A stretch of DNA of 64,000 bases, from the NCBI RefSeq assembly GCF_056746865.1, contig NZ_CM163382.1. One strand, given 5' to 3'. The translations under genes were made by a program, and so were the position numbers. The notes beneath the pieces were generated by a model. It ran no database searches, had not been told where the DNA came from, and saw nothing but the letters and a program-made list of their open reading frames with translations. This document shows positions 186-2,612 of the stretch, piece after piece. The first letter of the stretch is position 1, and every line of letters starts with the position of its first letter.

Positions 186-512
186 ATGGGCAAGAACAAT
201 TACCCTGAAAATAAATACAGGAAATGGTTTTCCACAGCAATAACATATCTTATTACAGGTGGTTTGTGCTGGTATATGTTGTGGGCATCCGCTATATCTC
301 ATTATACTGTTTTACAAAATACGGTACCTGAATGGACAACATATTTTTGCACCGGTATAATCACCGGATCTCTTTCTTTTATTTATGCATTTTATATCCG
401 CACCTTTAACAGAACATTAAAGTCTTTATTAAATGCATTCACGGGGGGATTTTGTCTTGGATTTATACTGAGTCCTGATGAATCCCCTAATGATTTTGAT
501 AAAAATCATTAG
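186..512 (+). CDS. hypothetical small membrane protein (about 108 aa)
   Basis: Track ORF 129..512 begins at TTG; first in-frame ATG at 186; several hydrophobic segments; no family recognised; 3-prime end runs into the 475..524 palindrome. Confidence 0.3.
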   Translation: MGKNNYPENKYRKWFSTAITYLITGGLCWYMLWASAISHYTVLQNTVPEWTTYFCTGIITGSLSFIYAFYIRTFNRTLKSLLNAFTGGFCLGFILSPDESPNDFDKNH

Positions 513-800
513 GGGATTCATCAGTGCTTGACCTTGTTTAAAAGCTGTAATATCGCAATTTACTAACTCAATATCTAAATCCATTGGCTTGGATGTACCT
601 CCTGCCTCAAGGAAGCTTTTTGAAAGCTGTCCAAAATCAATAGACTGATCAGCTGATTTCTGAGAAATGCTGCATGGAGCATCAACAACAGTTCCGTTAA
701 AAGTTACTTTACCCTGCCCCTGTGGAATAGTTGGAGCAGCATTTACACCAAAAGACACCACTGCCATAGCTACCGCACCGGCAATAATCGACTTAATCAT
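429..800 (-). pseudogene. papA: papA-like major pilin gene, 5-prime fragment (3-prime end replaced)
   Basis: Translation MIKSIIAGAVAMAVVSFGVNAAPTIPQGQGKVTFNGTVVDAPCSISQ...DIELVNCDITAFK matches PapA N-terminus; similarity stops near 537, tail is unrelated; ATG at 800 with upstream AGAGG. Confidence 0.75.
475..524. repeat. 50-bp perfect palindrome made of two head-to-head IS10-like terminal inverted repeats
   Basis: CTGATGAATCCCCTAATGATTTT-GATA-AAAATCATTAGGGGATTCATCAG read directly; left arm matches the IS10/Tn10 outside end as I recall it. Confidence 0.55.
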
Positions 801-1006: not shown

Positions 1007-1321
1007 TCAGTCAAATGCCGACGACTCATCTGTATAATAAGGTGCAAGCCTTGCTGCAAGAGCATTCAGCCGTATAAGTCTCCCAAGTGTTGTACTGAAA
1101 TACCCATTATTCATCTGGTATTTCTCGCAGACCTCCTTACGGGAGTGCCCACCTACCAGATAGTCCTTCATAGCCAGAATGACCCTGTCACTGTGAATAG
1201 AAGAAATACCTATCAGTAAAAAAAAATGCATTTCAGACATAGAGCCGGGCAACAGTACGCTCTCGCGTATATTCAGCAAAAACGCATTTCCTGACCGACT
1301 GATGACTTCATGATGCGCCAT
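1007..1321 (-). CDS. papB: PapB-family fimbrial operon regulator
   Basis: 104-aa product MAHHEVISRSGNAFLLNIRESVLLPGS... matches PapB/SfaB/FaeB family; sits upstream of the pilin gene on the same strand. Confidence 0.85.
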   Translation of the reverse strand: MAHHEVISRSGNAFLLNIRESVLLPGSMSEMHFFLLIGISSIHSDRVILAMKDYLVGGHSRKEVCEKYQMNNGYFSTTLGRLIRLNALAARLAPYYTDESSAFD

Positions 1322-1743: not shown

Positions 1744-1966
1744 ATGAGTGAATATATGAAGAATGAAATACTGGAATTTCTGAACAGGCATGATGGAGGG
1801 AAAACGGCAGAAATTGCGGAGGCGCTGGCGGTAACGGATTACCAGGCCCGCTATTACCTGTTATTACTGGAAAAAGCAGGTATGGTTCAGCGCTCACCAT
1901 TAAGACGGGGCATGGCAACATACTGGCTTCTGAAAGGAGAGAAGCAGGCGGGGCAGAGTTGTTCAC
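1744..1966 (+). pseudogene. papI: papI-like regulator gene, C-terminus replaced at junction with ISCR2 fragment
   Basis: [16 protein letters not shown]...RRGMATYW matches PapI; homology ends after ...AGQSCS (about 1966), then the frame runs into IS91-family sequence. Confidence 0.7.
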
Positions 1967-2612
1967 TTTGCAAACTCTGCCGACCAGTGGTGATCCGTTC
2001 GGTGACGGGATTGGCAAGGTAGCCGGGTCCAGCCTGCACGCCGGCGTGGCGGCCAGGGCCGATGAACGCAAGAAGCTCGAACGGCTGTGCCGGTACATCA
2101 GCCGCCCGGCGGTATCCGAGAAGCGGCTGTCGTTAACACGAGGCGGCAACGTGCGCTACCAGCTCAAGACGCCGTACCGGGACGGCACCACGCACGTCAT
2201 TTTCGAACCATTGGATTTCATTGCAAGGCTGGCCGCCCTGGTACCGAAGCCCAGAGTCAACCTAACCCGCTTCCACGGGGTGTTCGCACCCAACAGTCGG
2301 CACCGGGCGTTGGTCACGCCGGCAAAACGGGGCAGGGGCAACAAGGTCAGGGTGGCTGATGAACCGGCAACACCAGCACAACGGCGAGCGTCGATGACAT
2401 GGGCGCAACGGCTCAAGCGTGTTTTCAATATCGACATCGAGACCTGCAGCGGCTGCGGCGGCGCCATGAAAGTCATCGCCTGCATTGAAGACCCTATAGT
2501 GATCAAGCAGATCCTTGATCACCTGAAGCACAAAGCCGAAACCAGCGGGACCAGGGCGTTACCCGAAAGCCGGGCGCCACCGGCTGAGCTGCTCCTGGGT
2601 CTGTTTGACTGA
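1966..2612 (+). mobile_element. ISCR2-like (IS91 family) transposase gene, 3-prime fragment
   Basis: C-terminal translation ...NIDIETCSGCGGAMKVIACIEDPIVIKQILDHLK... is IS91/ISCR-family; lies upstream of the virD2-like/floR unit. Confidence 0.65.

Follow-up and report, generated by a model that had tools for sequence, protein, structure and literature searches.

A perfect palindrome of 50 bp marks the point at which papA is truncated in the stretch of DNA analysed here, 64,000 nucleotides of contig NZ_CM163382.1 (hereafter the window). We hold with high confidence that this palindrome is the scar of a nearly precise excision of the tetracycline-resistance transposon Tn10, and that it is a hybrid of two IS10/Tn10 insertion sites. 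The scar is today an inert, non-coding junction. It joins a dead pap stub (papA'-papB-papI), together with the ISCR2/floR/tet(A)/strAB/sul2 resistance region, to another segment of the island. Tn10 scars of this kind are an already known phenomenon.

Nearly precise excision of Tn10 was described around 1980. It proceeds by replication slippage or copy-choice and is aided when the long inverted IS10 copies pair by snap-back. The published Tn10 genetics is said to show that the process is independent of transposase. Its genetics was reportedly worked out by Ross, Swan and Kleckner in Cell in 1979 and by Foster, Lundblad, Hanley-Way, Halling and Kleckner in Cell in 1981. A passage in a later review describes nearly precise excision as copy-choice recombination between short direct repeats that is stimulated by replication. 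A literature search for a "Tn10 remnant" or an "IS10 remnant" returned no paper. As far as the sequence of the window goes, it is compatible with slippage and with a break-join route alike.

The palindrome and its flanks

The two arms of the palindrome (475-497 and 502-524) are 23 nt long and 100% complementary, and the spacer between them is GATA (498-501). The whole reads CTGATGAATCCCCTAATGATTTT GATA AAAATCATTAGGGGATTCATCAG. In single-stranded form, it makes a perfect hairpin with a folding energy of -24.7 kcal/mol (z = -10.6). The 23-mer arm is found in only these two places within the window, even with 3 mismatches allowed, and matched in 0 of 100 shuffles. The window as a whole contains no IS10 inside end and no IS10 outside end beyond 475-524, and no transposase lies between the two outside ends of the palindrome. 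An earlier note on this DNA had described two inverted IS10 outside ends with GATA between them and no transposase, and this description is borne out. The IS10 end sequence given in the note was also right: the arms agree with both outside ends of the Tn10 of plasmid R100 at 23 of 23 positions.

Both breaks beside the palindrome are flush with the outside ends, as seen by comparison with intact papA and with the intact gene on the left. Intact papA of strain SF-166, which reads ...TTTTTAGC TGCTTGACC..., is identical to the window from base 525 rightward and diverges completely leftward. The palindrome thus lies at the papA truncation point, as the earlier note had said, with the papA break flush at 524/525 and not at the distance of 12 bp from the end of PapA similarity that was given there. 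The palindrome itself was correctly located, but the feature does not extend to 536, since bases 525-536 are already papA. On the left, a gene for a hypothetical membrane protein starts with an ATG at 186 and is broken after 474. This gene is intact in strain Rb-50 (189 codons), where it sits downstream of a dGTPase-family gene and reads ...TATACTGAGTC up to the break and TGAACTG beyond it. The truncated frame runs on into the palindrome and ends there at a TAG (510-512), so the overlap with the stop of a small ORF had also been correctly noted. The 9-mers on the two sides of the scar, TACTGAGTC to the left and TGCTTGACC to the right, are identical at 4 of 9 positions, and the scar therefore has no target duplication. 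Compared with Rb-50, about 46.6 kb of the window (475-47055) replaces about 2 kb of that island. The features are collected in Table 1.

Table 1. Features at and beside the palindrome, with positions in the window
Feature	Position	Strand	Remark
Truncated hypothetical membrane-protein gene (96 of 189 codons, to 474) plus 12 scar-encoded codons	186..512	+	Stop inside the scar
TACTGAGTC, putative 9-bp target of a second, separate IS10/Tn10 insertion in the hypothetical gene; one copy	466..474	.	
Very probable Tn10 nearly-precise-excision scar, 50 bp	475..524	.	Equals the reverse complement of the in-silico R100 Tn10 deletion product
Terminal 13 bp of one Tn10 end (CTGATGAATCCCC), outside the 24-bp repeat	475..487	+	R100 comparison
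Single recombinant copy of the 24-bp repeat, TAATGATTTTGATAAAAATCATTA	488..511	.	R100 repeats match at 23/24
Terminal 13 bp of the other Tn10 end (GGGGATTCATCAG on the + strand)	512..524	-	R100 and XH993 comparison
TGCTTGACC, 9-bp target of the original Tn10 insertion in papA; one copy here	525..533	.	XH993
papA', N-terminal 92 codons of the P-fimbria major subunit gene; C-terminal 90 codons missing	525..800	-	
papB regulator gene, intact	1007..1321	-	Context
papI-like regulator ORF, 3' end runs into truncated ISCR2	1744..2022	+	Context

Derivation from the ends of Tn10

The Tn10 of plasmid R100 (L010) is 9,147 bp long and carries two inverted IS10 copies at its ends. One end is CTGATGAATCCCCTAATGATTTT TATC AAAATCATTAAG; in the other, read from outside, GGTA takes the place of TATC. 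Within each outside end, bases 14-37 form a near-palindrome. Since the IS10 copies are inverted, this creates a 24-bp direct repeat just inside each Tn10 terminus. The consensus of the repeat is TAATGATTTTTA[T/C]CAAAATCATTA, and the two R100 copies, TAATGATTTTTATCAAAATCATTA and TAATGATTTTTACCAAAATCATTA on one strand, match at 23 of 24 positions. When the R100 Tn10 is deleted in silico between these repeats, 13 + 24 + 13 = 50 bp remain. This rule was derived directly from the R100 transposon, and the canonical Tn10 ends of both R100 and strain XH993 were found to contain the 24-bp repeats. The F' plasmid of XL1-Blue was rejected as a source of Tn10 ends, as it carries a lone IS10.

The deletion can leave either allele of the repeat. 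The reverse complement of the TATC product is exactly the sequence at 475-524, and the reverse complement of the TACC product is the 50-mer of PKF11. The sole position that varies among the scars is the single mismatch between the two repeats. The window has GATA (equivalent to TATC), with the A at 499 being the allele of the TATC-type outside end, which in R100 belongs to the gltS-side IS10; the alternative allele is G. The GGTA/TACC allele is present in PKF11 and in L011, L012 and L013.

The scar thus shares with the Tn10 nearly-precise-excision remnant its length of 50 bp, the inverted IS10 outside ends and the identity with the product of a 24-bp-repeat deletion. It also has the predicted central allele, lacks transposase and tet genes, and lies at a site that is known in the occupied state.

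Occupied and scarred states of the same sites

In R100, Tn10 resides in a ParB-like gene between ssb/DUF905 and psiB, with the duplication CGCTCTGCC on both sides. At this same site, other F-type plasmids (L011, L012 and L018) have the 50-mer alone within the same duplication CGCTCTGCC. The flanks of L011 and L012 are 99.96% identical to R100 on both sides. The allele is GGTA/TACC in L011 and L012 and GATA in L018. The presence of both alleles at the R100 site indicates that both crossover outcomes arose from one ancestral insertion.

The papA site is also known with Tn10 in place. In strain XH993 (L016), the order is papC-papH-papA(3' part)-Tn10-papA(5' part)-papB-papI, with TGCTTGACC on both sides of Tn10. 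The right end of this Tn10 meets papA' at the same base as the scar of the window. In the orientation of the window, its left end has GGTA and its right end GATA, and one of its IS10 copies is split by IS100. Strain GPEC172 (L005) has Tn10 at the same papA' junction, with the left IS10 truncated. Among 5,426 complete E. coli genomes, IS10 is joined to papA' at this junction in 35, and 128 contain the scar junction of the window in full.

The two occupied strains differ in the orientation of the central segment of Tn10: the side turned towards papA' is that of gltS in one strain and that of tetC in the other. Both strains have the GATA allele at the outside end beside papA'. The inversion between GPEC172 and XH993 fits recombination between two inverted IS10 copies.

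Origin of the hybrid flanks

The classical Tn10 scar retains the 9-bp target duplication. The 50-mer lies inside such a duplication at seven other sites, and the copy in the window does not. The earlier note had proposed a check for target duplications, and its outcome is divided in the same way: other copies mostly have a perfect 9-bp duplication, and the window copy has none. Simple loss of the interior from the state seen in XH993 would leave a scar inside papA between two copies of TGCTTGACC. The flanking 9-mers are instead TACTGAGTC and TGCTTGACC, so at least one further rearrangement must be assumed. The left flank belongs to the hypothetical gene instead of papA, which makes the scar a hybrid between two sites of insertion. 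Moreover, this different gene is broken flush at the outside end, which indicates that a separate transposase-made junction was combined with the papA junction.

Two other replicons illustrate how such a hybrid forms. The scar of PKF11 has the GGTA allele and papA' on its right, and on its left it borders the 3' part of an IS3-family (IS1133-like) element, which adjoins a Tn3-family resolvase gene. In a plasmid (L020), the same left flank borders a scar that has its own duplication, CACTCGGCT, followed by strA-strB. Comparison of the two shows that hybrid scars arise by joining the halves of two insertions. The simplest route to them is homologous recombination between two IS10 or Tn10 copies followed by deletion between the 24-bp repeats, and this is also the most likely route for the window. 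A further scar without a target duplication is seen in a Klebsiella oxytoca plasmid (L021, 1501-1550). Located about 540 bp past tetR(B), it is a hybrid joint as well and lies within the would-be interior of a Tn10, the remnant of which still carries tet(B).

A Tn10-occupied relative is known for the right junction of the window, and none was found among the 5,426 genomes for the left junction. A direct precursor, in which the hypothetical gene meets a full IS10 outside end (GGATTTATACTGAGTC + CTGATGAATCCCCTAATGATTTTGGTAAAAATCATTAAGTTAAGG), was searched for in this E. coli collection with a chimeric 400-nt query and had no match at 80% coverage or more. A simple local deletion would have been likely had pap lain beside the dGTPase/hypothetical gene pair in XH993, which it does not. 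There, pap belongs to a tRNA-Phe island, and beyond papG lie tia and genes for a phosphoethanolamine transferase and an integrase. Because this island lacks the dGTPase/hypothetical pair, the left flank of the window must come from another island segment.

The following course of events is proposed. Tn10 first inserted into papA after codon 92 at the target TGCTTGACC, a step that is demonstrated by the state of XH993. The end of Tn10 turned towards the remainder of the pap operon would then have come to abut codon 97 of the hypothetical gene. Most likely, this was caused by homologous recombination with a second IS10 or Tn10 copy located there (target TACTGAGTC), by which the intervening DNA was removed or exchanged. 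As the last step, the Tn10 interior including tet(B) would have been lost by deletion between the 24-bp repeats, with a crossover that kept the GATA allele. The product of the interior deletion is directly visible in the window; the order of the steps is the one that we infer.

The window scar departs from the classical remnant, which is enclosed by both copies of the 9-bp duplication and is open to precise excision at a later time. With flanks from two insertion sites, it is at the same time a deletion or recombination joint and cannot revert, and the lack of flanking direct repeats means that precise excision is closed to it. In this respect it resembles the deletion joints formed by homologous recombination between IS copies, which are likewise flush, with flanks from two sites that each contribute one half of a different duplication. 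Unlike those joints, what remains in the window is 50 bp of a composite transposon and not an IS copy, so a second, repeat-mediated deletion step is required.

Alternative explanations

The earlier note had offered three readings of the palindrome, and one of them was a transposase-less miniature element. Accordingly, the 50-mer might be a minimal non-autonomous element (MITE) that is moved in trans by IS10 transposase and was inserted as a 50-bp unit. It has two complete 23-bp outside ends, most other copies lie within perfect 9-bp duplications, and IS10 is common in E. coli, so that transposase is often available. The IS-derived MITEs of Enterobacteriaceae (MITEEc1/ERIC, MITEKpn1 and the Tn3-derived TIMEs) are similarly short and transposase-less with the terminal inverted repeats of their family, and a target duplication of family length flanks most other copies of the 50-mer as well. 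Of the features expected of a MITE, the terminal inverted repeats of a parent transposon without its transposase are present; a target duplication at the window copy and multiple dispersed copies per genome are both absent. The flanks of the window copy belong to unrelated loci. The ParB-like gene of R100 and papA are both known with a full Tn10 at the same base and within the same duplication, which means that Tn10 produced the duplications at these two sites. At one site, both alleles are found within a single duplication, as expected of repeated deletion and not of the copying of an element. Copies are nearly always one per replicon among the matches listed, and the representative genomes of 100,044 species yielded one contig only. 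Two ends that are 4 bp apart also could probably not bend into one synaptic complex in cis. Unlike the IS-derived MITEs, then, the 50-mer is not amplified within genomes, nothing shows it to have moved as a unit, its duplications go back to insertions of the full Tn10, and its internal sequence comprises only 4 bp. The near-single copies, the two sites known to be occupied by Tn10 with the same junctions and the one contig among 100,044 species speak against the miniature element of the earlier note, and we regard movement as a 50-bp unit as very unlikely.

Another reading concerns the enzyme. The interior could have been removed by IS10 transposase, through aberrant cleavage and rejoining or abortive transposition, and not by slippage of the host replication machinery. 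Both outer junctions are indeed transposase-made and flush, and the sequence alone is silent on which enzyme removed the interior. The inner break points, however, fall exactly within the 24-bp repeats, and the sole variable base is the mismatch between them, which together are the signature of a deletion mediated by repeats. Transposase makes its cuts at the outer termini rather than 13-37 bp inward of them, and a transposase-made scar is accordingly highly improbable. The earlier reading as a footprint of an aberrant IS10 event came closest of the three; more precisely, the palindrome is in all probability the deletion scar of a composite Tn10 with inverted IS10 copies. The note had also counted it against its own readings if the palindrome were part of a longer known element. 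This applies in a historical sense, as a residue of the known element of 9,147 bp. The very stable fold at the end of two truncated ORFs could further suggest a selected functional hairpin, such as a terminator or a regulatory stem insulating the resistance region, which merely resembles IS10 ends. This is contradicted by the base-for-base identity with the Tn10 termini and by the presence of the same 50-mer in unrelated contexts, including the inside of coding genes, and we consider the chance of it negligible. A terminator was rejected, since on neither strand is the stem followed by a T-run.

The third suggestion of the earlier note, a cruciform-prone rearrangement hotspot, found no support, and the 128 complete E. 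coli genomes with the identical, unchanged junction give no sign of instability of the scar. A related idea is that the scar is still partly active. Transposase from other IS10 copies in the cell would bring one of its intact outside ends into synapsis with the end of an IS10 located elsewhere, be it on another replicon or on a sister chromosome, and such events, instead of prior homologous recombination, would have made the hybrid flanks of the window, PKF11 and L021. We think this improbable. If it were true, the 50-mer would be a persistent site of rearrangement in resistance islands.

The pap stub and the neighbouring island

Several features of the surrounding sequence were observed alongside the scar. 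The structural operon has been lost, yet papB and the papI-like ORF are intact. The intergenic region between papI and papB has two GATC sites (1427-1430 and 1529-1532) that are 102 bp apart, which corresponds to the spacing in the Dam/Lrp phase-variation switch of pap. In the same region, just upstream of papI, the 9-mer AGCAAACAC is repeated three times in tandem (1642-1668). The PapI-like ORF encodes 92 amino acids, compared with 77 amino acids for the annotated PapI of SF-166 (234-bp CDS). Within 1744-2612, the papI-like ORF overlaps, at its 3' end, an ISCR2 transposase gene that is truncated on the 5' side (annotated at 1950-2612 in the matching record). Tn10 thus bounds the pap stub on one side and ISCR2 on the other. 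ISCR2 is followed by floR, tet(A)/tetR, strB-strA and sul2.

Farther along, a direct repeat of about 1.1 kb with 94.7% identity (11332-12459 and 45925-47054) encloses a virulence-island segment of 33.5 kb. In related genomes, this segment encodes an S6-family autotransporter peptidase, an AbgT transporter, sodC, the fdrA cluster and a YadA-like adhesin. Strain ECCNB12-2 is collinear apart from lacking this segment. A copy of IS5 is located at 56082-57277, with a transposase ORF of 338 amino acids at 56115-57131, and is absent at the same position in ECCNB12-2.

Distribution and meaning of the scars

Both forms of the 50-mer are widespread in E. coli. The GATA form is complete in 150 of the 5,426 complete genomes, and in 128 of these 150 it lies at the papA junction. 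In the remaining GATA genomes that were examined, it lies on IncFII-type plasmids and, in two E. coli W derivatives, in the epmB-yjeJ spacer. The GGTA form is complete in 299 of the 5,426 genomes, mostly in the plasmid ParB-like gene among the matches listed. In PLSDB, 63 plasmid records from Escherichia, Shigella, Salmonella, Klebsiella and Enterobacter have the GATA form. Among the matches listed, each record has the 50-mer in one place, apart from a few records with several. When the representative genomes of 100,044 species were scanned for the 50-mer pattern, one contig was found (L011). This contig, NZ_JABBXF010000164.1 of 4,944 bp, is labelled Streptomyces morookaense, and over its whole length it is 99.96% identical to R100 around the Tn10 site. 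It is almost certainly an enterobacterial plasmid contamination of a Streptomyces assembly.

A 9-bp target duplication is the hallmark of IS10 and Tn10, and perfect 9-bp duplications are present in 7 of the 10 distinct junction types that were sampled. The duplications around the 50-mer at other loci are TGTTAAGTT, TATCAGGCC, CGCTCTGCC, TGCCAAACT, AGCAAAGTG and CACTCGGCT. The scar in E. coli LY180 (L003, 3001-3050), which is shared by KO11FL, has the duplication TATCAGGCC and lies in the epmB-yjeJ intergenic spacer. The E. coli plasmid pEM20-18-50_3 of 47.8 kb (L013, 2501-2550) has a GGTA scar with the duplication TGCCAAACT located 617 bp upstream of mcr-1.1. On this plasmid, Tn10 was formerly located beside the colistin-resistance gene mcr-1.1. 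Nearly all copies among the matches listed have no annotated feature beneath them, and none is annotated as a Tn10 remnant.

The origin from Tn10 explains a conspicuous, unannotated palindrome and dates the truncation of papA to the insertion of Tn10. The scar itself reveals no new biology, and its practical value lies in annotation. Each copy of the 50-mer is a record of a past Tn10 and of a lost tet(B), and the central base together with the flanking 9-mers can be used to mark lineages among resistance islands and F-type plasmids.
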